Below the pieces are notes generated by a model. It was not told where the DNA came from and did not search any database. It saw only the letters and a program-made list of their open reading frames with translations. A program made the translations under genes and the position numbers. A stretch of 64,000 nt of DNA from Escherichia coli (lineage in GTDB: Bacteria; Pseudomonadota; Gammaproteobacteria; Enterobacterales; Enterobacteriaceae), in the NCBI RefSeq assembly GCF_044324875.1, contig NZ_CP172185.1; one strand, written 5' to 3'. This document shows, piece by piece, positions 1 to 34,036 of this stretch (position 1 is its first letter; the number at the start of each line of letters is the position of its first letter).

Positions 1-1317
1 CGCCCGCTCCCGCAAGGTGAGTGGCAACAATTTCTCCTTTCTGATTGATGATGGAGGCATCGGTAGAGCCTGCACCTAAGTCCAGAATTGCCAGTGGACG
101 TGTGGTTCCAGGGGTAGTCAAGGCCCCCTGAATGGCGGCTTCTGCTTCTGCGCCTCCGACCTGAACATCAACATGCAGTTTTTGCTTAATTTCACTGGCG
201 ATCATTGCCATTTGCAGACGGTCGGATTTCACCATAGAGGCAATACCCACAGCCTGTTCCAGTGAAAATTCACCTGCCAGGCCGCCGGTTACGCTGACGG
301 GGACAGAGGTATCTATCGCCAGCAAATCCTGAATAAAAATTTCGTTGCTGGGTTTGTTGGTCAGTTCCGCCATGGTCTGGCGAACATGTTCCAGCATTCC
401 GCCGATGTTGGTGCCTGGTTCTCCCGTCACGTTTTCCAGTTTTGGGCACTCACCGACCGCTTTCATAATGGCATCGGCACCAGCAGCTACATCAACGCGC
501 GTTGTGCGCCCGGCAGAAAGCAGTTCGATATTTCCGGCGGGTATCGAACGGGCTTTAACGTCGCCAGAAGGCGTTTTCACTACCACTGCTGAACGGTTGC
601 CGATTAGCGCCCGCGCGACAGGAACAATATTTTTAGTCTCTTCAGCATTGAGGGCGAAAACGGTGGCAATCCCATACGGGTTAGACAGGGTTTCGATAAC
701 TTTCCCGGGAACGGCAACTTCAATTGCAGCCAGCATGCCGAGCGGAATACGATCGATGTAGAGGACTTCATCAACAATAGGTACAGCAATTTCCAGGCGG
801 TTACTGACCAGCACGCCATCGTCGCGTTGCAGAATAACGCCAGTCAGCTGATATCCGGCACGTACGGAGGCGTTTATCATCGTCGCGATATCGGCAAAAT
901 CAAATGCCGATGACACCACCAGGATGTAAGGTGTGTCCGCCGGGCGTGTTAATAACTCTTGCGGAGTGATGGTGAGCCCTACGCCCAGCCCCACTCCGCC
1001 CGGAGTTTTCGGGTTGTGACCGATCATGGTTGATTCGGTGATGATGGTTTCAGTGATGGTTTCCATCGCCACATCACCAATGACCGGAGTTGCTTCGTTG
1101 ATACGAATAAGCGAAATATCGCTAACATTGATGCCGACTTTTTTCGTTGCCTGTGCGAGCGCCTCCTGAATACCATGGACGTTACGCAACGTACCTTTAA
1201 TTCCGGTGGTTTCCGCCAGGGCGCTACTCACGAACGACAACTCTCCAGTTGCACTGAGCGTTGCCAGCGCAATCTCTGTTGATGAGTTGCCGATATCAAT
1301 GCCTGCTATATATCGCA
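1..1317 (-). CDS. pduG: Diol dehydratase reactivase large subunit, partial (C-terminus beyond window start)
   Basis: Reverse complement at 1317 reads MRYIAGIDIGNSSTE..., and the minus frame stays open to the window edge; sits directly downstream of pduCDE as in the Salmonella pdu operon. Confidence 0.75.
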
Positions 1318-1327
1318 TAGTTCGTCC

Positions 1328-1846
1328 TTAATCGTCGCCTTTCAGTTTTTTGCGCTCGACATAAAGCTCCGCAGCTTCACGGACAAATGCAGCACAAATT
1401 TTGGCCTGATAACGCCGTTCAAGATCGTCAGCAATGGCAATAAGTTCTTGCTTAGTCGAACGATAAGGGCGTAACGCATTGTAGATTTCGAGGATGCGAT
1501 CATCCGGTACTGAGGTAAGCTCAGCGGCGCGTTCAAAATTCATCGCCAGGCGATCGCGACCAGCATCTCTGGCAATCGCGGCCTGAATACGCAATGTTTC
1601 AGGGGTTATACGCATATCCTGGGCGGTGACGTTATCGCTGAGTACATTTTCCAGAGTGAAATCGTCGAGCGTTTTATTGGTCGCCGTTTTAACCCATTCC
1701 GGATGTTTATTTGCCAGCGGATAATCCGTCACTTTGGCGCTCTGTATTGATGCGTTGGGGACCGCAGAAACAGAAGCTGCATCCTGTAAACTGTTCATGC
1801 GGTTCAACACGTCCCTGACCATCGACTCAATTGCATCGGTATTCAT
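1328..1846 (-). CDS. pduE: Propanediol dehydratase small subunit
   Basis: 172 aa ORF starting MNTDAIESMVRDVL..., which I recognise as PduE; operon position after pduD. Confidence 0.85.
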   Translation of the reverse strand: MNTDAIESMVRDVLNRMNSLQDAASVSAVPNASIQSAKVTDYPLANKHPEWVKTATNKTLDDFTLENVLSDNVTAQDMRITPETLRIQAAIARDAGRDRLAMNFERAAELTSVPDDRILEIYNALRPYRSTKQELIAIADDLERRYQAKICAAFVREAAELYVERKKLKGDD

Positions 1847-1860
1847 GAAGATTTCCTTTG

Positions 1861-2529
1861 TTAAAACGTCACGCGCAGTTCTTGCGGTTTTTTGCCAGTG
1901 ACCACGTACTTCGTCTCTTTGATATGCAAAATGGCAGATTTAGCCTGGTATTTCGGCCGCGCCATTTGATCGTTGAGGGTCGGCACCGGTTGTGGAGACT
2001 CACGCTTTGCATAACGCGCGGCGTTTTTGCCAATCTGACGATAAGTTTCCAGCGTCAACAAAGGCGCTTGAGGGAATAGTTCCAGGTTAGACAAGGGAGG
2101 AAGACCCTGCTGGTGGATAACCGTTGTGCCTTTCGACTGAATACCGATAGCAATACCTGAACCACTAAGACGATCGCCTTCGACTGCTACGAATGCGACA
2201 TCGGACGATTTAAAGCAGCGAATCACACGGGCTTTAATGCCTTCTTCTTCGATACCAGCAATCACTTCGCGCAAGATGTTTTTATGCGGAATACCGATGA
2301 TATTGACGGTTTGCGCCAGGCCGAACGCCGGGCCTACAGCAATAATGACTTCATCTTGCTGAGTGCCTTGTTGGGCTTCGCCAATTTCGGTCAGAAAAGT
2401 TCCGGTATCTGGCGCGGAAGAGACAGTTGCACAGGCAGGTGCGCGAAATGAAACGGGCTTGTCGCTGGTTTGCATTTCTGCCAGCACGTCTTCGATAATC
2501 TGACGCAGTAATTTTTCGTTAATTTCCAT
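1861..2529 (-). CDS. pduD: Propanediol dehydratase medium subunit
   Basis: 222 aa ORF starting [16 protein letters not shown]..., PduD-like; between pduC and pduE. Confidence 0.85.
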
Positions 2530-2538
2530 TTCTCACCC

Positions 2539-4203
2539 TTAGTCAATTTCGTTGGGATCAAGTGCACCGGGAATATTTTTGATCTCTTCCCAGCGTTCCC
2601 CTTGCAGGCGGTAACCTGTAGCCGGTCCGGCGTAATCATTGATGTCATTGACCGCTGAGAGCACTTGTCCGTCATCGACGATGATGGCTGAGGTATGGAG
2701 ATAATCGCCGGTCAGTTTTGCTTTTTGCATGTTGAGCATGTCCTGGGCGACATCGGTAAAACCGCCTTGCGCCAGGGCTTTCACCACTTCCAGGCTGTTA
2801 CGGTTTTTATTGATAATCTCCTGGGCGAACTTGATGTCTTCCACAATATTGCGCTCAGGCATATCTTTCGAACCGTGGGCATAGGTTGCCGCTTCGACTT
2901 CTTCATCGGTAATAGGCGGTAGTCCCATACCGGCAAAGACAGCCTGTAAAGCGCGAGCGGCTTTATTGCGGATAGCGATAACATCTTCTTCGCGTACTGG
3001 TCGCAGCCCGCCATCAACCTTCAGGTCACGCTGAATGACGTTGTAATCATCGAAGTCTTCAGCATCTTCGTTTGAACCAGCAAACATGTTGTCGTAGTTC
3101 GGCACAGCGGAAAAACCGGAAGAGATAAAGTCGGTACCTGGCAGAAACTGCATCAGGAAACGTGCGGTACGGCGCATATCCGAGTGGGTAAAGGTCTGGT
3201 CATTACTGGAAGCGCATTCCAGATCCAGCGATGAGCAAATTAAGTTTTCCGCTAATACTGCGCGGATGCCTGATGGCACAGCCGATGGGACACCGATGCA
3301 GCTTACCGAACCATTCTGCAGACCCTGAACGCCTGCGGCTTTAGTGATGTAAATGCAACGAGCCTCGAGATAAAGCATTGATTTGCCTTCCGCGTAACCC
3401 ATCTGTACTTCTGAGCCGGAGCCGGAAGTAAAGCGCATTTTTAAGCCGCGAGAAGCATAAGATGACGCGAGAAACCCTTTTGACCACGGGGTATCATCGC
3501 CATCGGTGAAAACAGGTTCTGTACCATAGACAGAAATTGTTTCGGCGTAACAGGTGTGGCCTAACATACCGAGTTTCAGTTCGGTGGCTTCTTCCAGTGA
3601 ACACTGGGTCAAGACGCCCGGACGTCCCACCTGTGAGCCGACCAGCAGGGCGATGGCGTTGAACGGTGCATAGCGAGCAACGGCAACGGTGGTTTCCTGT
3701 TCATCAAACCCGCGCCATGCGCCTTCAGCTGCGTCGGCGGCAATTTGTACCGGGTTATCTTTAACGTTGGTGACGTGAGCCTGTTGTGATGGTGTTCGAC
3801 GGGCGCGCATTTTCTGCATCGCCATCATCATCTCTACCACGTTCATCTGCGAAACCACTTCGACGATTTTTGCAGGCGTCATTGCTGTGGTAAGGGGAAC
3901 GATATCGCTACGTTTGACATTTGGATCGCACAACATATTGGCAAGTTTTACCGAATCCATCGCGATGACTTCTTCGGCGCGAGCGAGATTGATGCCGTAG
4001 CGGGCGATAAAGTGGTCGATCAGGTCAAACTGGCTGGCGGGTTTTCCATCCAGTTCGGTAACGACGCCGTTAACAATTTTGATTGACGGTTTAGGATCGT
4101 TCGGGCTTTCCATCGCAATGAAGCCTTCTTCAATCCACTCTTTAACGAAACCGTCCTGGTTGACCGGGCGTTTTGCCAGTGCTTCAAATCTTTTCGATCT
4201 CAT
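2539..4203 (-). CDS. pduC: B12-dependent propanediol/glycerol dehydratase large subunit
   Basis: 554 aa ORF, the size and sequence of a diol dehydratase large subunit. Confidence 0.9.
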   Translation of the reverse strand: MRSKRFEALAKRPVNQDGFVKEWIEEGFIAMESPNDPKPSIKIVNGVVTELDGKPASQFDLIDHFIARYGINLARAEEVIAMDSVKLANMLCDPNVKRSDIVPLTTAMTPAKIVEVVSQMNVVEMMMAMQKMRARRTPSQQAHVTNVKDNPVQIAADAAEGAWRGFDEQETTVAVARYAPFNAIALLVGSQVGRPGVLTQCSLEEATELKLGMLGHTCYAETISVYGTEPVFTDGDDTPWSKGFLASSYASRGLKMRFTSGSGSEVQMGYAEGKSMLYLEARCIYITKAAGVQGLQNGSVSCIGVPSAVPSGIRAVLAENLICSSLDLECASSNDQTFTHSDMRRTARFLMQFLPGTDFISSGFSAVPNYDNMFAGSNEDAEDFDDYNVIQRDLKVDGGLRPVREEDVIAIRNKAARALQAVFAGMGLPPITDEEVEAATYAHGSKDMPERNIVEDIKFAQEIINKNRNSLEVVKALAQGGFTDVAQDMLNMQKAKLTGDYLHTSAIIVDDGQVLSAVNDINDYAGPATGYRLQGERWEEIKNIPGALDPNEID

Positions 4204-4221
4204 AAATCTGCCTCAGAAAAT

Positions 4222-5034
4222 TCAGATGTAGGAAGGGCGATCGTTTTTCGGTGTATCGCCGAGAGTCGAAAGCACGGTTTTACCGATTTCGCGTGCGGAG
4301 ATGACCGCCTGGCGGACTGCGCCGGAGTCACCCGAGATAATCAGAATGACTTCATTGCTGTAGCTGGTGCCTTGCGCGGGGGAGCTGTATGCCACAACAT
4401 CCACATTGGCGGACTTCAGCGCGGTGTCTGCCATCAGAACACCCACCGCAGCCGGAGCGCCGACAATAACGCCGCAAGCCCGTCCCAGTGGAGCGCCAAA
4501 CGCTTTTTCCAGTGCATAGCTGGCGCGGGCGGTATATTGCAGTTCAAGATGTCCGGCTTCGTTGGCATAGACATCGCCAAAGGTTCGATCGAGTTCTTTC
4601 AGGGCAACTTCAATACCGCGTTTCACGTCGGAAACATCGTTGCCACCTAAGAGGATCAATGAGCCGTGTCCGGCACCGCCTTTAGTATCGCGAGGAAGTT
4701 CAATGCTAATAACTTCAGTATTGGTTGCTTTTACCGCTTCATCAGCGGCCATAATGTGTGGACCTGCGCCAATACGCGCACCCAGAATGCCAATGGAACG
4801 ATAGCGTTTTTCAAGTTTCATTGCGTCCAACAGGGCGCTATCAACGTTCGCAATGACCAGACCTACAGTGTCGCCAATAGCGGTGCCAACAAATTCTGTT
4901 AACGTGCAGCTTTTTTCTGCCATAGCCGTCTCTCGTATTTGATGAGTGGTTTTCGGGAGAACCTCATGCTCTGGCGTCGCTACGCGAGCGATGACCTGCG
5001 CCATGATCTGTTCGACCAGTTCATTGCTGCTCAT
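4222..5034 (-). CDS. pduB: Microcompartment shell protein PduB
   Basis: 270 aa ORF between pduA and pduC; tandem BMC-domain shell protein by sequence and position. Confidence 0.85.
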
Positions 5035-5315
5035 GGGTTAATTCCCTTTGGTAAGATTTTTTCGACATCGGTATGTGGGCGGGGAATAACGTGCACGGCT
5101 TTTACTTCGCCGACGTTACGCGCAGCTGCGGCACCTGCGTCTGTTGCCGCTTTTACCGCCCCGACATCACCACGAACGATGACGGTCACCAGCCCGGAAC
5201 CTATTTTTTCGTAGCCGACCAGCAAAACATTTGCCGACTTCACCATGGCGTCTGCGGCCTCTATGGCGGCAGTTAAGCCTTTGGTTTCTACCATTCCTAA
5301 CGCTTCTTGTTGCAT
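5031..5315 (-). CDS. pduA: Microcompartment shell protein PduA
   Basis: 94 aa [33 protein letters not shown]..., near-identical to the PduA I remember; first gene of the pdu operon. Confidence 0.9.
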
Positions 5316-5826
5316 AAAGACCTCGCCTGGATTTTTTTGACGATATGACTATAAAAAAAAGCGAGGAAAAAGAATGGCTGACTTAATCGGCTAATGAGAA
5401 AAATTAATAGAGAACAAATATTATAAAATTGCTTTTATGAACTATATGTTGTTAATTTATTAGTTGTTTTGTGGATATTTCAATGTGAATTAATTGCGTT
5501 GGCTAGTGAGTTTAATCGCGAGTAATATTTTGTGGGGGGGTGTTCGAGGAAGGAACTGTGATATTTGTTTCAATTTTATTATGTCATGATGGCAATTTTT
5601 TATTATAAAAGTTTGGCGGTAATTATTACTTTCAACACTGATTAACGCTGTGTTGCATGATTCGGTAATGACAATAATTTGTTATGTTAGCACGATTTTT
5701 ACACGAGTCTGTCATGCATGTTAGCAATATTTTCTGCAGAGCAATTTTTTATAGTTGCGCTCGATATATACAACAATCAGCGCATAGTTGGCTGATAAAG
5801 AAAAACTCCGTAAAGAAGGTGTCACT
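5316..5826. promoter_or_regulatory. AT-rich divergent control region between pduA and pduF
   Basis: About 500 bp AT-rich intergenic DNA between divergently oriented pduA and pduF; this is where the pdu and pduF-pocR promoters lie in Salmonella. No individual site was identified. Confidence 0.4.
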
Positions 5827-6636
5827 ATGAATGATTCACTCAAGGCGCAATGCGTTGCCGAGTTTTTGGGCACCGGACTGTTCCTCTTTTTTGGCATTGG
5901 TTGTTTGTGCGCCCTGAAACTTGCCGGGGCAAGTCTGGGACTGTGGGAAATTTGTATCATTTGGGGGTTAGGGATTTCGCTTGCTGTTTACCTTACGGCA
6001 GGTATTTCCGGCGCTCATCTCAACCCGGCAGTTACCATTGCTCTGTGGCTGTTTGCCTCTTTCCCAGCCCGTAAAGTGCTGCCATTTTGTGTGGTGCAAT
6101 TAGCGGGTGCCTTTGGTGGTGCGGTTCTGGCATATTTTCTCTACAGCAGTTTGTTTACCGATTTTGAATCTGCTCACAATATGGTGCGTGGTAGTGCAGA
6201 AAGTTTACAACTCGCCAGTATCTTCAGTACTTATCCGGCAGCGGCGATTAATGTATGGCAAGCTGCGTTGGTCGAAGTGGTCATAACGTCCATGTTAATG
6301 GGGTTGATTATGGCGTTGACCGATGACGGTAATGGCGTACCCAAAGGACCGCTTGCGCCTTTACTTATTGGTATTCTGGTTGCTGTTATTGGTGCTTCTA
6401 CCGGACCATTAACCGGTTTTGCCATGAATCCAGCGCGTGATTTTGGACCTAAAATTTTCACCTGGCTTGCGGGTTGGGGGGAAATTGCGATGACTGGTGG
6501 ACGCAATATTCCTTATTTCATTGTACCCATTATTGCACCGATCATTGGCGCATGTGTTGGTGCGGCGATTTATCGCTATCTCATTGCAAAGAATTTACCT
6601 GTCAATAGTGTTACACCTAAAGAAATCAGCGAATAA
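5827..6636 (+). CDS. pduF: Propanediol diffusion facilitator (MIP/aquaporin family)
   Basis: ORF track frame 5788..6636; likely start at internal MNDSLKAQC... preceded by an AAGGTG ribosome-binding site; multiple transmembrane segments and MIP-type NPA motifs (NPAVT, NPARD). Confidence 0.85.
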   Translation: MNDSLKAQCVAEFLGTGLFLFFGIGCLCALKLAGASLGLWEICIIWGLGISLAVYLTAGISGAHLNPAVTIALWLFASFPARKVLPFCVVQLAGAFGGAVLAYFLYSSLFTDFESAHNMVRGSAESLQLASIFSTYPAAAINVWQAALVEVVITSMLMGLIMALTDDGNGVPKGPLAPLLIGILVAVIGASTGPLTGFAMNPARDFGPKIFTWLAGWGEIAMTGGRNIPYFIVPIIAPIIGACVGAAIYRYLIAKNLPVNSVTPKEISE

Positions 6637-6838
6637 CGAAATAATCTGGCAGCTATAAACGTTTATTTTTTTACTGTTTGTGATCTGCTTTCCGAACTTA
6701 TTAAAAAGTCTCCCGCTTCACGGAGGCTTTTGTTATTGTCCTTTGTGCTTCTCGTCAGTAAATCATCAGGGATGATGTGAAGATTAAATGTAAAACAATT
6801 GTTTTGCTATAACAATAAATTAACTGGGAGGTTTTATC

Positions 6839-7753
6839 ATGATTTCTGCGGCGACACTTAATTCAGAACTCATTAATAAAATCGCGCAGGATTTTGCGCA
6901 GGCGACCAGCCTTGCGGTTGTCGTGGTCAATATTCACGGCGATGAAATTTCCGAGCTGTTTAACTTCACTCCATTTTGTCAGATGATGCGGCAACACTCT
7001 CAGCTTAGCACTCGATGTCGCATGAGCGATCGTTGTGGGGGCCTGGAAGCCTCTAAATCCGATCAGCCTTGTATTTATCGCTGTCATGCCGGATTAACCG
7101 ATTTCTCTATTCCACTGGTAATCGCCGGACATTTAGTTGGTTTTGTATTGTGCGGGCAAGTTCGTCTGCGTAATGATGATGTCGATTTGGTCGATATTCT
7201 GAATGTCGATGATTGCTGGCAGGCAGATCCCGAATTACTTAATGAATTTCGCAAAGTCCCTGAGATGGATTACTCAAGAGTTATGGCCTCTGCTGATTTG
7301 TTGAAGTTGATTGTGGAAAATTGCCTCAAAAAACAACTCAATTTTGTTGTTATTAAAGAGAACAAATTTCAGTCAGATTCGGTGCGCCAGACTCGTGCGC
7401 CTAATCCCCACGACAATAAAATGAAAAAAGCTTTACGCTATATTGATGCGCATTTATCAGACGATTTGCGTCTGGAAGATGTCGCCTCGCACGTTTATCT
7501 AAGCCCTTATTATTTCAGCAAGTTATTTAAGAAATACCATGGGATTGGGTTTAATGCGTGGGTAAACCAACAACGGATGGCCAGCGCTCGTGAGTTACTG
7601 TGCCATAGTGACTGGAGCATCGCCAGCATTGCGCGTAATTTAGGTTTTTCGCAAACCAGTTATTTTTGCAAAGTTTTCCGTCAGACTTATCAGGTTACGC
7701 CGCAGGTGTATCGGCAGCAAGTGAATGAAAATGCGGCGATGGAAACGGTATAG
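6839..7753 (+). CDS. pocR: AraC-family regulator of pdu/cob
   Basis: 304 aa ORF with a C-terminal AraC-type HTH domain (…YLSPYYFSKLFKKYHGIGFNAW…); position between pduF and the cob leader. Confidence 0.85.
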   Translation: MISAATLNSELINKIAQDFAQATSLAVVVVNIHGDEISELFNFTPFCQMMRQHSQLSTRCRMSDRCGGLEASKSDQPCIYRCHAGLTDFSIPLVIAGHLVGFVLCGQVRLRNDDVDLVDILNVDDCWQADPELLNEFRKVPEMDYSRVMASADLLKLIVENCLKKQLNFVVIKENKFQSDSVRQTRAPNPHDNKMKKALRYIDAHLSDDLRLEDVASHVYLSPYYFSKLFKKYHGIGFNAWVNQQRMASARELLCHSDWSIASIARNLGFSQTSYFCKVFRQTYQVTPQVYRQQVNENAAMETV

Positions 7754-7859
7754 AGTAAATGCCAAAAAAAAGGAAGGTTTAAATAAACGCTGGAATGAAT
7801 AATTAACGTTATTTACGTGTTATGGGAAAAGTGAAATCAGCTCATAACATACGCTGACA

Positions 7860-8060
7860 GGTGTGGCACATTTGTGCCAGGGAAGAGGGTGAAAATCCCT
7901 CGCAGCCCCCGCTGCTGTAATGCTGACAAACCCGAAAATGCCACTGATCGCGAGATTGGGAAGGTCGGGTGAGGATGACGCTAAGCCAGAAGACCAGTCT
8001 GTCAGTCAATACCAACAACTTCGGTGGGAAGTGGGTTGCCCGGAAGCGTCCGGTAGAGTA
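7860..8060 (+). ncRNA. Cobalamin (B12) riboswitch-like leader
   Basis: Contains GTGCCAGGGAAGAGGGTGAAAATCCC, GCAGCCCCCGCTGCTGTAA, GCCACTG and a B12-box-like AAGCCAGAAGACCAGTC, all resembling conserved cobalamin-riboswitch segments as in the btuB and cob leaders. Confidence 0.7.
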
Positions 8061-8235
8061 CTGGCGCGTCTTTATACCCCTACCACCCTGAAAGGATCAG
8101 GGTATGGCGGCATCATTTAGTTCTTTCATCGCAGTGCCAACAGGCACCAGAGCTGCACTTAAGGTGTGGCAATCTTGTTTCATGGCTCATCAACCAGACC
8201 GCCATTACAGGAAACTAAGTGGAGGGCGAGGGACA

Positions 8236-8672
8236 TGAAAACGATAAGACCCGAATCGATAGCTCTTTTTTGCCTCTTATCTGGAGATGCGGACCTGGCG
8301 AAACAATTGGCTGAAATATTGCCAATAACTTGTTTTGTTGGTGAGGACTGGCAGCAAGATTTCCAGCCTCTTGACGGTGGGCCTGTGCAATCGTTATCAG
8401 ATGTGTATGGCGATTATTCAGTGCTGCTATTGATAGCAGCTGAAAGCGAGATATCCGTACCAGAATGGCTCGCTCATTCTGAAGGAACGACGGTAATTGT
8501 GATTGCAGAACACAATGCCCGTTTGCTGACTGGTCCGGCTGGTGGGGCTGTAGCATTGATCCATTATCTGAATGAAATCTGTCATTCCAGAGAAACCGCT
8601 GTCAATGACGCATTTTGTCGTACGTTAACACGAGGAAGTCTGGCTATTCCGCAATGCCATCTTCTTTCGTAA
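8236..8672 (+). CDS. Hypothetical protein downstream of the B12 riboswitch (possible remnant of a deleted cbi region)
   Basis: ORF track frame 8166..8672; internal ATG (MKTIRPES...) preceded by GGAGGG; no family recognised. Confidence 0.3.
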
Positions 8673-8805
8673 TGGATTGAGAATGCTGGATTTTTAATTA
8701 TATTACGCGCAGTATTAATCGCGTAAATGTTTTGCGGTCAGCAACGGTGGGGGATCCATTGTTCTGTTCAATGAATACCATCATACAAATGAATCAGGAG
8801 TCGGT

Positions 8806-9351
8806 ATGATGATTTTGGTGACGGGGGGCGCACGGAGCGGGAAGAGTCGCCACGCAGAGGCGCTTATTGGGGACTCTTCACAGGTTCTGTATATCGCCAC
8901 CTCGCAAATCCTTGATGATGAGATGGCTGCACGGATAGAACATCATCGGCAAGGCCGCCCGGCGCACTGGCGCACGGTGGAGCGCTGGCAACATCTTGAT
9001 GAATTAATTCATGCAGACATTAACCCGCATGAAGCTGTGTTGCTGGAATGCGTTACCACAATGGTGACTAATCTGTTGTTTGATTATGGCGGCGATAAAG
9101 ACCCTGATGAATGGGATTATCAGGCGATGGAACAGGCAATTAATGCTGAGATTCAGTTGTTGATTGCTGCCTGCCAACGTTGCCCCGCGAAGATTGTATT
9201 AGTGACTAACGAAGTGGGAATGGGGATTGTGCCGGAGAGTCGTCTGGCACGACATTTTCGTGATATTGCCGGGCGGGTAAATCAGCAGCTGGCCGCTGCG
9301 GCAAATGAAGTGTGGCTGGTGGTTTCGGGTATTGGAGTAAAAATCAAATGA
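8806..9351 (+). CDS. cobU: Adenosylcobinamide kinase / adenosylcobinamide-phosphate guanylyltransferase
   Basis: 181 aa [25 protein letters not shown]... with P-loop; matches E. coli CobU. Confidence 0.95.
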
Positions 9352-10091
9352 GTAAATTATTTTGGGCGATGCTCTCTTTTATTACGCGTCTGCCTGTGCC
9401 GCGTCGCTGGTCCCAGGGACTGGATTTCGAGCATTATTCTCGCGGTATTATTACTTTTCCTTTAATTGGTTTATTGCTTGGCGCGATTAGCGGGCTGGTC
9501 TTCATGGCGTTGCAGGCATGGTTTGGCGTACCACTGGCGGCACTGTTTAGCGTACTTGTGCTGGCGCTTATGACCGGGGGATTCCACCTGGACGGCCTCG
9601 CCGATACTTGTGATGGCGTATTTTCTGCACGTAGCCGCGATCGCATGTTGGAAATCATGCGTGATAGCCGTTTAGGTACCCACGGCGGTCTGGCATTGAT
9701 TTTTGTTGTACTGGCAAAGATTTTGGTGTTAAGCGAGTTGGCTTTGCGTGGCGAACCGATCCTTGCATCGCTGGCGGCAGCATGCGCGGTCAGCCGCGGG
9801 ACTGCCGCATTATTGATGTATCGTCATCGTTATGCCCGGGAAGAAGGGCTTGGCAATGTGTTCATTGGCAAAATTGATGGGCGACAAACCTGCGTCACAC
9901 TCGGTTTAGCCGCTATTTTTGCTGCTGTATTATTGCCAGGTATGCATGGTGTGGCTGCTATGGTGGTGACGATGGTGGCGATTTTCATCCTCGGTCAGCT
10001 TCTCAAACGTACGCTGGGCGGGCAAACCGGCGATACGCTGGGAGCAGCCATAGAGCTTGGTGAACTGGTCTTCCTGCTGGCACTGCTATAA
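9348..10091 (+). CDS. cobS: Cobalamin synthase
   Basis: Start [17 protein letters not shown]... overlapping the cobU stop (ATGA); polytopic membrane protein matching CobS. Confidence 0.95.
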
Positions 10092-10102
10092 AGAGACGTG
10101 AC

Positions 10103-11182
10103 ATGCAAACACTTGCCAATTTACTGAATACGATCCCTGCCATCGATCCTGCCGCTATGTCGCGTGCACAACGGCATATTGACGGGTTACTCAAACCTGT
10201 TGGTAGCCTGGGAAGGCTGGAGGCGCTTGGCGTACAACTGGCGGGAATGCCGGGGTTGAATGGCATACCGCATGTGGGCAAAAAAGCGGTACTGGTTATG
10301 TGTGCCGATCACGGCGTCTGGGAGGAAGGGGTCGCTATTTCCCCAAAAGAAGTCACAGCCATTCAGGCTGAAAATATGACCCGCGGAACAACCGGCGTGT
10401 GTGTGCTGGCAGCACAAGCGGGCGCTAACGTCCACGTAATTGATGTTGGTATTGATACTGCTGAGCCTATCCCCGGGCTTATCAACATGCGTGTCGCACG
10501 AGGTAGCGGCAATATTGCTTCAGCTCCGGCAATGAGTCGCCGTCAGGCTGAAACGTTGCTTTTGGACGTCATATGTTATACGCGGGATCTGGCAAAAAAC
10601 GGTGTCACGCTGTTTGGTGTAGGTGAATTGGGGATGGCAAACACGACACCGGCAGCGGCGATAGTGAGCACAATCACTGGCCGGGCTCCTGAAGAAGTGG
10701 TTGGGATTGGCGCAAACCTGCCGACAGATAAACTGGCTAATAAAATTGATGTTGTGCGACGGGCGATTACGTTGAATCAACCAAATCCGCAGGATGGCGT
10801 TGATGTCCTGGCAAAAGTGGGTGGATTTGATTTGGTCGGAATGGCTGCCGTGATGTTAGGCGCTGCGTCCTGCGGTTTACCGGTGTTGCTGGATGGATTT
10901 CTTTCTTATGCTGCTGCGCTCGCAGCCTGCCAGATGTCTCCTGCAATCAAACCGTATCTCATTCCTTCTCACCTGTCGGCAGAAAAAGGGGCGCGTATAG
11001 CGCTGTCACATTTGGGGCTGGAGCCTTATCTCAATATGGAGATGCGTTTAGGTGAGGGGAGTGGCGCAGCTCTGGCGATGCCCATCATCGAAGCTGCTTG
11101 TTCGATATACAACAACATGGGCGAACTTGCTGCCAGTAATATTGTTCTACCGGGGAATACGACTTCTGATTTGAACAGTTAA
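10103..11182 (+). CDS. cobT: Nicotinate-nucleotide--dimethylbenzimidazole phosphoribosyltransferase
   Basis: 359 aa [35 protein letters not shown]..., matching CobT. Confidence 0.95.
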
Positions 11183-12234: not shown

Positions 12235-12310
12235 TGGCTCCTCTGACTGGACTCGAACCAGTGACATACGGATTAACAGTCCGCCGTTCTACCGACTGAA
12301 CTACAGAGGA
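12235..12310 (-). tRNA. asnV: tRNA-Asn (anticodon GUU)
   Basis: Reverse complement reads TCCTCTGTAGTTCAGTCGGTAGAACGGCGGACTGTTAATCCG...GGTTCGAGTCCAGTCAGAGGAGCCA, the E. coli tRNA-Asn sequence; gene name assigned by position. Confidence 0.95.
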
Positions 12311-14642: not shown

Positions 14643-14718
14643 TGGCTCCTCTGACTGGACTCGAACCAGTGACATACGGATTAACAGTCCGCCGTTCTAC
14701 CGACTGAACTACAGAGGA
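14643..14718 (-). tRNA. asnU: tRNA-Asn (anticodon GUU)
   Basis: Same 76-nt tRNA-Asn sequence on the minus strand. Confidence 0.95.
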
Positions 14719-16466: not shown

Positions 16467-16542
16467 TCCTCTGTAGTTCAGTCGGTAGAACGGCGGACTG
16501 TTAATCCGTATGTCACTGGTTCGAGTCCAGTCAGAGGAGCCA
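16467..16542 (+). tRNA. asnW: tRNA-Asn (anticodon GUU)
   Basis: Plus-strand TCCTCTGTAGTTCAGTCGGTAGAACGGCGGACTGTTAATCCGTATGTCACTGGTTCGAGTCCAGTCAGAGGAGCCA. Confidence 0.95.
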
Positions 16543-19610: not shown

Positions 19611-20927
19611 TCAAGCGCGTAGATTATCTTTCATCAACAAAGCGGTCATTGCGGAAATCAGGCATCCAGCCAGCAAATAAATGGCGACGCTATGCCAGTT
19701 CCCGGCAAAGTAAGTGATGAGTGCAGCGGCAATAAAAGGTGTAAATCCACCGCCAACCACACTGGCAACCTGATAACCGACTCCTGCACCACTATAGCGA
19801 TAACTGGCACCAAACATTTCGGTAAACATCGGTTGTTGCACACACACCACCATGTCATGCGCAATGTTTGCCAGCATTATGGAGAAGAAAACTATCCAGA
19901 AAATAGATTGTGTTTCAAGCGCCATAAAGAAAGGAAATGCGCTCAACGTTCCGATTAACGCGCCTGTGATATAAACCCTGCGGCGACCAAAACGATCGGC
20001 AAGCCAGGCAAAACAGGGAATGGTCAGGCAGCTTAATCCACCTACCAGCAAACCAATATTAAGGAAAAGTTCGCGCGGTAACCCCATATTCTGGGTTGAA
20101 TAATTAAGTGCGAAGGCGGTAACGATGTACATCGTCAGCAACTCGCACAGTCGTAGCGCAATAATCTTCAGGAAAGCACCGGGATGTCGTAATAGTGCTT
20201 CGATAACCGGAATGCGTTTTTTCGCGGCCGCTTGATTATGTTGCTGTTGTTCGAATTCCGCGGACTCCTCCATGCCATTACGCACCCACAATGCTCCCAG
20301 TACCAGTACGATGCTAAACAGGAAAGGAATGCGCCAGCCCCAGCTTAAAAACTGTTCGTCAGTCGTCATCATACTGATCAATGAAACCAGTCCAGTTGAA
20401 AGCAGTAAACCTACACCGTAGCCAACTTGTACACCGCTACTGTAAAAGGCTTTTTTATTTTTCGGTGCACTTTCAACGGAAAGTAACGCTGCGCCTCCCC
20501 ATTCGCCGCCGACGGCAAATCCCTGTATGGCACGCAGCGTCACCAGTAAAATGGGGGCCCACCACCCAATGGTCGAGAAGGAAGGAAGAATACCAATCAA
20601 GGCTGTCGCGATGCCCATCATCCAGACGGTCAGCATTAACATGCGCTTACGTCCCAGCCGGTCGCCAAAGTGACCGAAAATGACACCGCCGAGCGGACGG
20701 AAAAGGAATCCGACGCCAAAGGTGGCAAATGCGGCGAGCGTTCCCATAGCCGGGCTTACTTGCGGGAAAAACTCGCGATTAAACACCAGTGCGGCGGTAA
20801 TGCCATAGAGTAAAAAATCATACCAGTCGACGACGGCACCAGCGAAACTGCCTAACGCAGCTCGTCGGGCGCGACTTAACGAAAGCGTCCCTTCATCGGG
20901 ACGAGTGGAGATGAGCGTGGAGTCCAT
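19611..20927 (-). CDS. shiA: Shikimate transporter (MFS)
   Basis: 438 aa ORF with 12 predicted transmembrane segments; size and sequence match ShiA. Confidence 0.9.
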   Translation of the reverse strand: MDSTLISTRPDEGTLSLSRARRAALGSFAGAVVDWYDFLLYGITAALVFNREFFPQVSPAMGTLAAFATFGVGFLFRPLGGVIFGHFGDRLGRKRMLMLTVWMMGIATALIGILPSFSTIGWWAPILLVTLRAIQGFAVGGEWGGAALLSVESAPKNKKAFYSSGVQVGYGVGLLLSTGLVSLISMMTTDEQFLSWGWRIPFLFSIVLVLGALWVRNGMEESAEFEQQQHNQAAAKKRIPVIEALLRHPGAFLKIIALRLCELLTMYIVTAFALNYSTQNMGLPRELFLNIGLLVGGLSCLTIPCFAWLADRFGRRRVYITGALIGTLSAFPFFMALETQSIFWIVFFSIMLANIAHDMVVCVQQPMFTEMFGASYRYSGAGVGYQVASVVGGGFTPFIAAALITYFAGNWHSVAIYLLAGCLISAMTALLMKDNLRA

Positions 20928-21241
20928 AATGATCCTGTTTGTACTGTCTTTTTATAATTAGTATGGAAAAGGTAACTCACATTGCCGTCGATCTATAAAC
21001 GAACCTTATGAGACTACCTCGACAGAGCGCATCTGCAAATGATTTTATGGCTGATTAACGGCAACATGAAAAATTCGCTGGAAGATGAAAGTACAGGAGT
21101 TGCTGGTGTTGTTTAAGGATTAAGCAGAGCACCCACAGGTTCGAGATATGAAACATAAAAGTCCGCATATGCACAAAATGGCACCCTGATGAGTCTGATA
21201 GACTGCATTGCATTATAACCAGTAGGGAGGCGAGGTTAATT

Positions 21242-22873: not shown

Positions 22874-31489
<8,616 letters not shown>

Positions 31490-31801
31490 GCTTACCTTCC
31501 CTGAACGAGCTAACATAAATGCGCCCTTTCTAGCACAGCGAAAAAAAGTAAATCCTGATAGCAATATGATTGAAAATTAATAACTTTTCGTTAAGCAGTT
31601 TTGGGTGTGAGTTGCAAGGGGGAGACTACTGAATTACTCAAGTTTTATAATCGAGGGGAAAATGGTGATGGCGTCCATAGCAAAACGCCCTCAACCATTA
31701 AGGTCGAGGGCGCTTAAGATGTCAAAAACCCGCTATCCGTTAAAAAGCAATGCTCAACTAAGGTCAGTGACATTGGGCTAAAAAAGCGAATTTTTAGAAT
31801 T

Positions 31802-31877
31802 TGGCTCCTCTGACTGGACTCGAACCAGTGACATACGGATTAACAGTCCGCCGTTCTACCGACTGAACTACAGAGGA
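31802..31877 (-). tRNA. asnT: tRNA-Asn (anticodon GUU)
   Basis: Fourth copy of the identical 76-nt tRNA-Asn sequence, minus strand. Confidence 0.95.
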
Positions 31878-32867: not shown

Positions 32868-32957
32868 CGGAGAGATGCCGGAGCGGCTGAACGGACCGGT
32901 CTCGAAAACCGGAGTGGGGGCAACTCCACCGGGGGTTCAAATCCCCCTCTCTCCGCC
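32868..32957 (+). tRNA. serU: tRNA-Ser (anticodon CGA)
   Basis: GGAGAGATGCCGGAGCGGCTGAACGGACCGGTCTCGAAAACCGGAGTGGGGGCAACTCCACCGGGGGTTCAAATCCCCCTCTCTCCGCCA: long-variable-arm class II tRNA with anticodon CGA. Confidence 0.9.
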
Positions 32958-33002
32958 AAAATTCAATCACTTATACATCATTAAGTCAGTGACAAAAATC
33001 AC

Positions 33003-33038
33003 ACTTGGAATTACTTGGAATATTTTCTTGGAATATTT
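33003..33038. repeat. Three direct CTTGGAAT repeats next to the attachment site (candidate integrase arm-type sites)
   Basis: CTTGGAAT at about 33003, 33013 and 33026, with GGAATATTTT occurring twice; lies between the tRNA-Ser 3' end and the integrase 3' end. Confidence 0.35.
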
Positions 33039-34036
33039 TCAGGTAACGGGACATCAAGTGTTGGTGAAACTTTAACCTTCCGGTCATAGATTAGCACTTG
33101 CCCTTCGGTTTTGTGACCAGAGAAAAGTTGCTTATCCCGGCTGCTTCCTTCATAGTCTGAAATTCCTTTCGCCTTCAGATCATGAAAGGTGAAGTCGGTT
33201 AAAATACCTGAAACTTTGCCTGCGCGATTTCTTGCTTCTACCCACATTTCGTTAAAGCCTTTGTACATATATCGGTTGCCGTATTGATTGCTGATCACAT
33301 AGGCGGATTTTGGTAACTGTTTTGCTTTTTCGACCGCTGCCTGTAATCGTGGACTCCATGCTTTTATCTGTTTTTTCCCTGTTTTCCCTTGCTGGATAAA
33401 GATCCCGTCGTTTCCAATCTGCTCCCATTTCAGCGATAACACATCGGAAACCCTCGCTGCACACAGATAGGCAATTTCCATTGCGATAAAAACAGGAAGG
33501 GGTGCCACGCTTAATACTGCCTGGTATTCTTTGTCGGTTACATATCGTTCGCGGTTTTTGGCCTTGAATTTACTTACTCCTGCACATGGGTTAGCCTTCA
33601 CGTACCCTCGCTCATACCCCCAACTGTAAACACGGGACATACTGCTTTTTTCATGGTTGGCTTGCGTTTTACTCTGTTCCCCTCTTTTGTCCATGTATCG
33701 ACGGATGTGTTCTGGTTTTATGGAATCCGCTGGTACCTTACCGAATACGGCAAGCAACTTTTTTTGATGTTGCAGATAATCTTTTTGTGTTCTTGGACTA
33801 AGGTCACTGTAACAGGCGCTGGCGAGGAATTTTTCCCACAAGCGACCGAATGTCATTGCACGATCGCGATTATTTACAGTTTCCTCATACTTTTTCCATA
33901 AAGCAGCTAAACCATCCTTGATGGCGGTTAGTGTTACAGATTCTCTGGATGTTGGTTTCCATACATAACTATATTTATTTGGGTATACATTTGGAGGTAA
34001 TTTTTCGTGTTCAGGATTTTTCCTTCGTCTTCCCAT
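33011..34036 (-). CDS. int: Tyrosine recombinase (phage integrase)
   Basis: 341 aa ORF adjacent to the tRNA and reading toward it; C-terminal region has tyrosine-recombinase-like R...HxxR...Y spacing (…FTFHDLKAKGISDYEGS…HKTEGQVLIYDRK…). Confidence 0.85.
   Translation of the reverse strand: MGRRRKNPEHEKLPPNVYPNKYSYVWKPTSRESVTLTAIKDGLAALWKKYEETVNNRDRAMTFGRLWEKFLASACYSDLSPRTQKDYLQHQKKLLAVFGKVPADSIKPEHIRRYMDKRGEQSKTQANHEKSSMSRVYSWGYERGYVKANPCAGVSKFKAKNRERYVTDKEYQAVLSVAPLPVFIAMEIAYLCAARVSDVLSLKWEQIGNDGIFIQQGKTGKKQIKAWSPRLQAAVEKAKQLPKSAYVISNQYGNRYMYKGFNEMWVEARNRAGKVSGILTDFTFHDLKAKGISDYEGSSRDKQLFSGHKTEGQVLIYDRKVKVSPTLDVPLPENIPRKYSK

Follow-up and report, generated by a model that had tools for sequence, protein, structure and literature searches.

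The first 7,753 nucleotides of a 64,000-nucleotide stretch of Escherichia coli DNA (NCBI RefSeq assembly GCF_044324875.1, contig NZ_CP172185.1; the whole stretch is referred to here as the window) carry propanediol utilization (pdu) genes that run off its left edge, raising the question as to whether these are the beginning of an intact operon, and how they come to lie next to cobUST. An earlier note on this DNA had recognized pdu microcompartment genes with a divergent pduF-pocR pair, and the open reading frames, six-frame translation and profile matches agree with it. The observation is thus real and was correctly spotted, and it is already known from other strains: the start of the window very probably covers the promoter-proximal third of the pdu locus on the chromosome of a pdu-positive E. 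coli lineage, where it lies, as usual, between tmaR (yeeX) and cobUST. This is the form that the enterobacterial pdu-cob regulon takes in Escherichia.

The pdu genes, pduF and pocR in the window

The window holds just the first six pdu genes, as the earlier note had stated, all on the minus strand and with the sixth cut by the window edge. The operon begins with pduA (5031-5315), which encodes a 94-residue hexameric BMC shell protein matching the S. enterica PduA crystal-structure chain 3ngk_A (E=1.7e-52), and which is also called PduA in the annotation of relatives. It is followed by pduB (4222-5034), coding for a tandem-BMC-domain shell protein of 270 residues (NF011944 equivalog, 474 bits against a cut-off of 173), so both BMC shell types, the hexameric and the tandem-domain, are encoded in the window. 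The next three genes code for the B12-dependent diol dehydratase PduCDE, whose three subunits are all full-length and above their NCBIfam cut-offs: the large subunit, PduC (2539-4203, 554 residues; NF011979, 1073 bits against 788), aligns end to end with residues 1-554 of the K. oxytoca diol dehydratase alpha chain (PDB 1dio_A, 1218 bits), and the medium subunit, PduD (1861-2529, 222 residues), and the small subunit, PduE (1328-1846, 172 residues), match NF011616 (392 bits against 248) and the NF011971 equivalog (355 bits against 282) over their full lengths. The last of the six, pduG (2-1318), encodes the diol dehydratase reactivase alpha subunit and is interrupted by the window edge, which leaves codons 1-439 of 610. 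All 439 visible codons are open in six-frame translation, and they match profile positions 1-437 of the 599 in TIGR04491 (658 bits against a cut-off of 400); the complete 610-residue protein is found in two near-identical contigs, L012 and L018, described below.

Divergent from these genes, on the plus strand, are pduF (5827-6636) and pocR (6839-7753), which together form the regulatory unit of the locus. PduF is a propanediol diffusion facilitator of 269 residues belonging to the MIP channels (Pfam MIP, 205 bits; TIGR00861, 223 bits) and bears the same name in the annotation of relatives. PocR, an AraC-family activator of pdu and cob that responds to 1,2-propanediol, is 304 residues long, contains the Pfam PocR sensory domain and HTH_AraC, and scores 549 bits against the cut-off of 500 for the NF047788 equivalog; its stop codon ends exactly at position 7753. 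Curated NCBIfam equivalog or subfamily cut-offs are therefore exceeded by PduG, PduE, PduD, PduC, PduB and PocR, and the pdu genes, pduF and pocR are all open and full-length as far as they are visible. These matches establish the identities and order of the genes and their intactness within the window.

The putative control region between the divergent units (5316-5826) is AT-rich, the G+C content dipping here to about 42%. Its alignment with the corresponding sequences of E. whittamii, Salmonella and Citrobacter has a mean column identity of 76%, with a conserved pduA-proximal leader and several short blocks in common. A simple promoter scan of positions 5200-8900 gave three hits against a mean of 6.9 in shuffled sequence, and being below the shuffled level it says nothing about pdu or pocR promoters.

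The interval between pocR and cobU

The earlier note placed the pdu locus directly beside cobUST in a Salmonella-like arrangement. The site is correct, but the adjacency is not direct: about 1.05 kb (7754-8805) intervenes between pocR and cobU, containing one cobalamin riboswitch and two remnant open reading frames. The likeness to Salmonella holds to the left of this interval, where pduA-G, pduF and pocR are ordered and oriented as in S. enterica, and extends to a cob leader with a riboswitch downstream of pocR; identity to the S. enterica counterparts is 86-98% for the Pdu proteins, PduF and PocR, and their mechanism is presumably the same. It fails between pocR and cobU, where Salmonella and about 50 further enterobacterial species have cbiA-cbiP and this block is gone here. 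The published Salmonella order is pduBAF-pocR-cbiABCDETFGHJKLMNQOP-cobUST (PMC5282855), and in the Salmonella loci that we compared (L039 and L046), as in Citrobacter, Klebsiella, Yersinia and others, pocR is likewise followed by cbiABCDETFGHJ and further genes, whereas the Escherichia locus lacks the 17 cbi genes and retains only the scars cbiA' and cbiG-N'. It is because the intervening B12-synthesis genes of Salmonella have been deleted here that pdu adjoins cobUST.

The left part of the interval is the cob leader, with an adenosylcobalamin riboswitch at 7842-8016 on the plus strand that matches all of Rfam model RF00174 (positions 1-189 of 189; 104.7 bits against a gathering score of 31.5). 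Positions 7838-8112 align at 83-86% with the Salmonella and Citrobacter cob leaders, reaching the cbiA start codon, and BLAST homology with Salmonella stops 9 nucleotides into cbiA. The conserved cbiA ribosome-binding region and ATG are followed by a plus-strand open reading frame of 44 codons (8104-8238), the cbiA' remnant recognized by translation and alignment, whose resemblance to the CbiA N-terminus is weak and spans about 15 codons. Its TGA overlaps the ATG of a second plus-strand frame of 145 codons (8235-8672) in the sequence ATGA.

The 145-codon frame is a degenerate remnant of the CbiG N-terminal domain. It matches only profile positions 1-125 of the 351 in NF004463 (CbiG; 63.7 bits against a cut-off of 546), a Pfam profile search gave no match for it, and it is 41-46% identical to the N-terminus of Salmonella CbiG; homologues are confined to Escherichia and Shigella, the dN/dS ratio is 0.41-0.57, and relatives are annotated as either 'hypothetical' or 'cobalamin biosynthesis protein'. 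We considered a cbiA-cbiP fusion and rejected it, as the match is to the CbiG N-terminus only; a functional CbiG was rejected on score, coverage and dN/dS, the C-terminal domain being without a match. When Salmonella CbiA-J were used as tblastn queries, all ten genes were found in about 50 other enterobacterial species, and the sole match in the Escherichia loci was this same CbiG N-terminus at 41-46%. The interval thus carries the scars of a cbi deletion.

To the right, on the plus strand, lie cobU (8806-9351; NF004469, 245 bits against a cut-off of 161), cobS (9348-10091) and cobT (10103-11182), all three in agreement with how relatives are annotated; CobU and CobT are 83% and 79% identical to the S. 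enterica PDB chains 1c9k and 1jh8. Since the cbi genes are deleted, the strain would salvage B12 and be unable to make it, and propanediol use would depend on imported B12, or on imported cobinamide completed by CobUST.

There is a small chance that the stretch between pocR and cobU is more than a deletion scar, and constitutes a working leader together with a reading frame that has a function of its own. The riboswitch, the ribosome-binding site and ATG of cbiA, and the cbiA' and cbiG-N' frames with their stop/start overlap could form such a leader, which could place cobUST of pdu-positive Escherichia under induction by PocR and repression by B12; K-12, in which the leader is lost, would then be without this control of cobUST. 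Since dN/dS is below 1 for the 145-codon frame, which is uninterrupted in E. coli, E. albertii, E. marmotae and E. whittamii, this frame might have gained its own role in corrinoid handling. We regard the interval primarily as what the cbi deletion left behind.

The operon beyond the window edge

The left edge of the window cuts pduG and leaves 13 of the 19 operon genes outside, and we have compared the window with three near-identical contigs from draft assemblies, which differ from it by no mismatch in 12,259 nucleotides (L014), one in 17,753 (L012) and one in 11,318 (L018). Contigs that match this closely, with 0-1 mismatches over 11-18 kb, carry the complete operon pduABCDEGHJKLMNOPQSTUV, ending at tmaR 9.2 kb to the left of the window. 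In L018 the genes run uninterrupted from pduG through pduV, and comparison with NCBIfam or Pfam profiles shows all the distal genes to be of full length. The closest complete genome has the same 19-gene operon, with pduA-pduV between tmaR and the series pduF-pocR-riboswitch-ORF-cobUST; in both this genome and L018 the last operon gene is pduV, which a gap of about 100 bp separates from the convergent tmaR. Among the genes outside the window, those for the shell proteins PduJ, PduK, PduT and PduU are present in L018, as is a full-length gene for PduN, the pentameric vertex protein of the EutN/CcmL fold, of which the source genome would have a corresponding copy; both L018 and the closest complete genome encode full-length versions of the aldehyde dehydrogenase PduP, the phosphotransacylase PduL and the alcohol dehydrogenase PduQ. 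The presence of the full operon in such near-identical contigs makes it likely that the operon is intact in the source genome.

A different outcome would be a decaying pseudo-operon, disrupted at some point in the 9.2 kb beyond the left edge, of which the six visible genes are non-functional leftovers. Such decay does occur: pduS is split in two pdu-positive strains (L005 and L008), an IS element sits between pduN and pduO in another (L019), ISEc33 interrupts the locus in one genome (H42), and in a further pair (H53 and H54) it is truncated at the equivalent of window position 953. Against this, pduG-pduV is full-length and uninterrupted in contigs with 0-1 mismatches over 11-18 kb, every visible pdu gene of the window is intact, and within Escherichia the dN/dS values of pduC, pduB, pduF and pocR are only 0.01-0.07 (0.01 for pduC), indicating purifying selection and long-term constraint in the lineage. 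We therefore consider decay here to be quite improbable, and favor an intact operon.

The same pduABCDEGHJKLMNOPQSTUV operon with divergent pduF-pocR occupies the same chromosomal site, from tmaR to cobUST, in other pdu-positive E. coli, among them the adherent-invasive strain LF82 as well as many commensals, ETEC and STEC, and we see no structural difference from the window. The Salmonella operon was reportedly described by Bobik et al. in 1999 as ending in pduW, for a propionate kinase, and pduX, for a threonine kinase; the complete relatives are without these two distal genes. PduX is needed for de novo B12 synthesis only (PMC5282855). Where the tabulated LF82 genes correspond, their lengths match those found here, and LF82 expresses pduB through pduV, as tabulated (PMC6379400). 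Growth on or degradation of 1,2-propanediol that depends on B12, as well as polyhedral bodies, have been published for other pdu-positive E. coli (PMC9220930, PMC6379400).

From homology and this published work we infer how the locus would function. By analogy with Salmonella, PduF would admit 1,2-propanediol, and PocR would sense it and activate both the pdu promoter and that of the cob leader. The microcompartment shell would be built by PduA and PduB with the downstream products PduJ, PduK, PduN, PduT and PduU, and inside it the adenosylcobalamin-dependent PduCDE would make propionaldehyde, with PduGH as its reactivase. The aldehyde would be processed by PduP, PduL and PduQ and the cofactor recycled by PduO and PduS, while CobUST would carry out nucleotide-loop assembly, salvaging cobinamide to cobalamin. 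The last ATP-yielding step presumably falls to the housekeeping AckA/TdcD. Propanediol use in a Pdu microcompartment is a recognized fitness trait of gut E. coli, in which the pathway would work only with B12 that the host or the microbiota supplies. Adherent-invasive strains associated with Crohn's disease are enriched for this trait, and the published frequency of pdu is about 50% in adherent-invasive E. coli and 20% in others (PMC9220930).

Distribution, loss from K-12 and origin

The absence of the pdu genes from K-12, mentioned in the earlier note, is confirmed in MG1655. Both sides of the locus, cobUST-ldtA-nac-cbl and tmaR-yeeA-sbmC, are the same in K-12 as in the window at about 97% identity, but IS5H and the cryptic prophage CP4-44 replace most of the segment from pduV through pduA, together with pduF, pocR, the riboswitch and the 5' portion of the 145-codon frame. 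Inside yoeF, K-12 keeps a 183-nucleotide remnant of the 3' end of pduV, and, as yeeH', the final 172 nucleotides of the 145-codon frame; a literature search on yoeF, yeeH and pduV found nothing relevant. Remnants of pduV and the 145-codon frame are present at the deletion ends in nearly all pdu-negative E. coli, and the end-points of the K-12 loss are common to most E. coli. Several classes of deletion end-point occur, at window positions 8501, 8332, 8546 and about 8620. Because these remnants persist at both ends, the lack of pdu is the derived state, and that of K-12 a secondary loss. This and the lack of a B12 synthesis pathway correct the earlier picture of the locus; neither alters current understanding, the locus being an ordinary one that is already described.

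The locus is patchily distributed, occurring in 646 of 5426 complete E. coli genomes (~12%, or about one in eight) and always on the chromosome, so that the strain belongs to a minority. While this patchiness, the low G+C content of the pduF-pocR segment (41-45%) and the Salmonella-like impression might point to a genomic island recently acquired from Salmonella, Citrobacter or Klebsiella beside a native cobUST, we find this very hard to credit, since dS against all three genera is saturated, at or above about 1 (on which ground recent transfer from Salmonella in particular was rejected), the pdu dS among Escherichia species of 0.2-0.35 is similar to or below that of flanking genes (0.16-0.33 for cobS, and about 0.34-0.73 for cobU, cobT and ldtA), representatives of E. 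whittamii and other Escherichia species have an identical site and layout, and the remnants in pdu-negative strains mark absence, not presence, as derived. We read the pdu locus instead as one of vertical descent.

Nucleotide identity between the window and complete E. coli genomes is 98-99%, with a best value of 99.0%. The exact allele of the window is absent from the complete-genome set and is found, with 0-1 mismatches, in draft assemblies; a protein look-up with PduE gave matches of 97.9-99.4%.

The pdu locus and its continuation beyond the window

Six pdu genes lie head to tail on the minus strand, as seen in the ORF list and, at the left edge, by six-frame translation: pduG (2-1318; 439 codons of a gene whose full protein has 610 aa, open to the window edge), pduE (1328-1846), pduD (1861-2529), pduC (2539-4203), pduB (4222-5034) and pduA (5031-5315). 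An AT-rich control region of 511 bp (5316-5826) separates pduA from pduF (5827-6636), which encodes a MIP-family channel by profile; pduF is followed on the same plus strand by pocR (6839-7753) and, downstream of it, cobU, cobS and cobT (8806-11182). PduE, PduD, PduC, PduB and PocR exceed the curated NCBIfam cut-offs with full-length coverage, as does PduG within the limits of a gene cut by the window edge. PduC matches the Klebsiella oxytoca diol dehydratase alpha subunit across residues 1-554, and crystal-structure chains of S. enterica PduA match the window PduA (E=1.7e-52). The identities of the pdu and pocR genes are secure, and since the ORF list, translation and NCBIfam and structure matches agree, the coordinates and gene list of the earlier note are correct, including its statement that only the first six pdu genes (pduA to pduE, and pduG) are in the window. 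The pduF-pocR spacer contains an Rfam match to the Salmonella sRNA STnc230 (6695-6778, minus strand; 74.8 bits, gathering score 50), overlapping a bidirectional terminator-like hairpin at 6704-6731.

Three near-identical contigs were reached by exact-protein look-up with the PocR allele of the window and with the complete PduG of its lineage; they differ from the window by no mismatches in 12,259 nt (L014), one in 17,753 nt (L012) and one in 11,318 nt (L018). L018 carries uninterrupted pduG, H, J, K, L, M, N, O, P, Q, S, T, U and V, whose proteins cover NCBIfam or Pfam profiles end to end wherever a profile exists; the operon ends 9,217 nt to the left of window position 1 and is followed by convergent tmaR (yeeX) and yeeA. 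The layout is identical in the closest complete genome. The window itself ends in pduG, and it is on these near-identical contigs that we consider the operon very probably complete in the source genome. Among other pdu-positive strains, pduS is split in L005 and L008, L019 has an IS element in the pduN-pduO interval, a complete genome (H42) has an ISEc33 insertion in the locus, and in two more (H53 and H54) the locus is truncated inside pduG.

The likely mechanism is carried over by homology from the Salmonella system, where it is established knowledge. PduF would admit 1,2-propanediol, and propanediol-bound PocR would activate the promoters of pdu and of the cob leader. PduA, PduB and other shell proteins would form a microcompartment in which the adenosylcobalamin-dependent PduCDE turns propanediol into propionaldehyde; PduGH, PduO and PduS would keep the cofactor active, and PduP, PduL and PduQ would yield propionyl-CoA, propionyl-phosphate and 1-propanol. 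Because the cbi genes are absent, the cofactor would have to come from imported B12 or cobinamide, finished by CobUST, and because PduW is absent, propionyl-phosphate would be used by AckA or TdcD, a step that we infer ourselves from the Salmonella work.

The locus is real, mostly well described and already known. The pdu operon has been reported in ~50% of adherent-invasive E. coli isolates and 20% of the others (PMC9220930), and expression of pduB through pduV, as tabulated, has been described in LF82, with gene lengths equal to those here for every listed gene that has a counterpart (PMC6379400). In the closest complete genome the NCBI annotation pipeline names all genes of the locus, riboswitch included.

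Remnants of the cbi genes between pocR and cobU

The Salmonella order is pduBAF-pocR-cbiABCDETFGHJKLMNQOP-cobUST (PMC5282855). We compared pocR neighbourhoods, one genome per species, scoring each locus with the window proteins and Salmonella CbiA-J. In about 50 species, of Salmonella, Citrobacter, Klebsiella, Phytobacter and Yersinia among others, the cbi genes follow pocR in the order cbiA, B, C, D and so on, so that the arrangement proposed earlier as Salmonella-like is not: here the cbi block is gone. Likewise, cobUST does lie downstream of pocR but not directly beside it, with 1.05 kb separating cobU from pocR. In these neighbourhoods the order pocR-riboswitch-short ORF-cobUST was found only in the Escherichia loci L022-L025.

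The interval contains a plus-strand cobalamin riboswitch (7842-8016; Rfam, 104.7 bits against 31.5), and the remainder of the cob leader is 83-86% identical to those of Salmonella and Citrobacter as far as the ribosome-binding region of cbiA and an ATG at 8104. By translation, this ATG opens a 44-codon remnant of cbiA (8104-8238, plus), whose stop codon overlaps the start (ATGA) of a 145-codon ORF (8235-8672, plus). The ORF is 41-46% identical to the N-terminus of Salmonella CbiG and matches the CbiG profile over positions 1-125 of 351 only (63.7 bits, where the cut-off is 546); a Pfam search gave no match, and a homologue search found relatives only in Escherichia and Shigella. Between species it is 67-97% identical and stays open; its dN/dS is 0.41-0.57, as opposed to 0.01-0.17 for neighbour genes at comparable divergence. 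Judged by these comparisons, the ORF is the N-terminal domain of CbiG in decayed form, and the riboswitch, leader, cbiA remnant and ORF are the deletion scars of a formerly complete cbi operon. In relatives, pduW and pduX are absent from the distal end of the operon; absence of pduX fits loss of the cbi genes, since de novo B12 synthesis is the only process that requires PduX (PMC5282855). Because the riboswitch and cbiA start codon are retained, we suggest that cobUST may still be B12-repressible in pdu-positive strains. Possible novelty is limited to one point, that the leader from riboswitch to ORF might be functional rather than a scar.

Probable loss of the locus from K-12 and most E. coli

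The cobUST part of the first 12 kb is matched in 5419 of 5426 complete E. coli genomes, but the pdu part (1-7753) in only 646 (11.9%), always on the chromosome and at 97.7-99.0% identity. Because the core genes flanking the locus are ~97% identical to K-12, the window belongs to E. coli, or to an organism that cannot be told apart from it, in a lineage other than K-12. The earlier note is right that pdu is absent from K-12: the cryptic prophage CP4-44, with IS5H and IS2F, occupies the site between cobU and tmaR, and only remnants of pduV and the 145-codon ORF are kept. K-12 homology resumes at window position 8501, inside the ORF, as pseudogene yeeH' (8069-8155 of the K-12 locus, L021), and the last 183 nt of pduV are the 3' part of K-12 yoeF (20576-20932 of that locus).

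At least the 3' end of pduV is present in 5410 of the 5426 genomes, at least 80% of pduH-V in only 636, and the pduV remnant alone in ~4,770. The 183-nt end-point is identical in the sampled pdu-negative genomes, and the other is 8501 in most of them, with minor classes at ~8332, 8546 and 8620; these common end-points point to one dominant, putatively ancestral deletion. Within Escherichia, pdu dS is 0.2-0.35, comparable with that of cobS (0.16-0.33) and below that of cobU, cobT and ldtA (~0.34-0.73); it is saturated against Salmonella, Citrobacter and Klebsiella. From end-points and divergence rather than a phylogeny, we infer that Escherichia has long carried the locus, and that K-12 and most E. 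coli would be pdu-negative by secondary loss, with one deletion allele dominant.

Related loci and other features of the window

Outside named Escherichia, Enterobacteriaceae isolate RIT691 (L077, 10999-13985) has pocR, a cob leader and an ORF like the 145-codon ORF, then directly nac and cbl, lacking cobUST and ldtA in this layout; it is a further decay stage of the same arrangement. In Hafnia paralvei (L069, 11669-13000) an independent deletion downstream of pocR has removed everything from cbiA to most of cbiF but has left cbiG intact, and 'Escherichia sp. MOD1-EC7003' has a PocR 84% identical and a full Salmonella-like cbi block. A 'Citrobacter sp.' metagenome-assembled genome contig (L022) has an E. 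coli-type locus (PocR 98% identical), and one Streptomyces assembly includes a 383-nt contig with a 98% pocR fragment; both appear to be mis-binned or contaminant sequences in public assemblies.

Elsewhere in the window, four identical tRNA-Asn(GTT) genes (12235-12310, 14643-14718, 16467-16542 and 31802-31877) are scattered among nac, cbl, yeeO, yeeN, amn, shiA and a glycosyltransferase gene; none of the four has an island inserted in this strain. A very large minus-strand ORF of 2896 aa (22874-31564) corresponds to the Ig-like-domain inverse autotransporter YeeJ, in a region only ~94-96% identical to the best complete genomes. A lambdoid prophage, integrated beside tRNA-Ser(CGA) (32869-32958), extends from 32869 to at least 63646. 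The ORF at 33011-34036 is its likely integrase, and the prophage has Rfam matches to C4 antisense RNA, isrK, DicF and sok; its best matches in E. coli genomes span only 75% of the query and are 93% identical.
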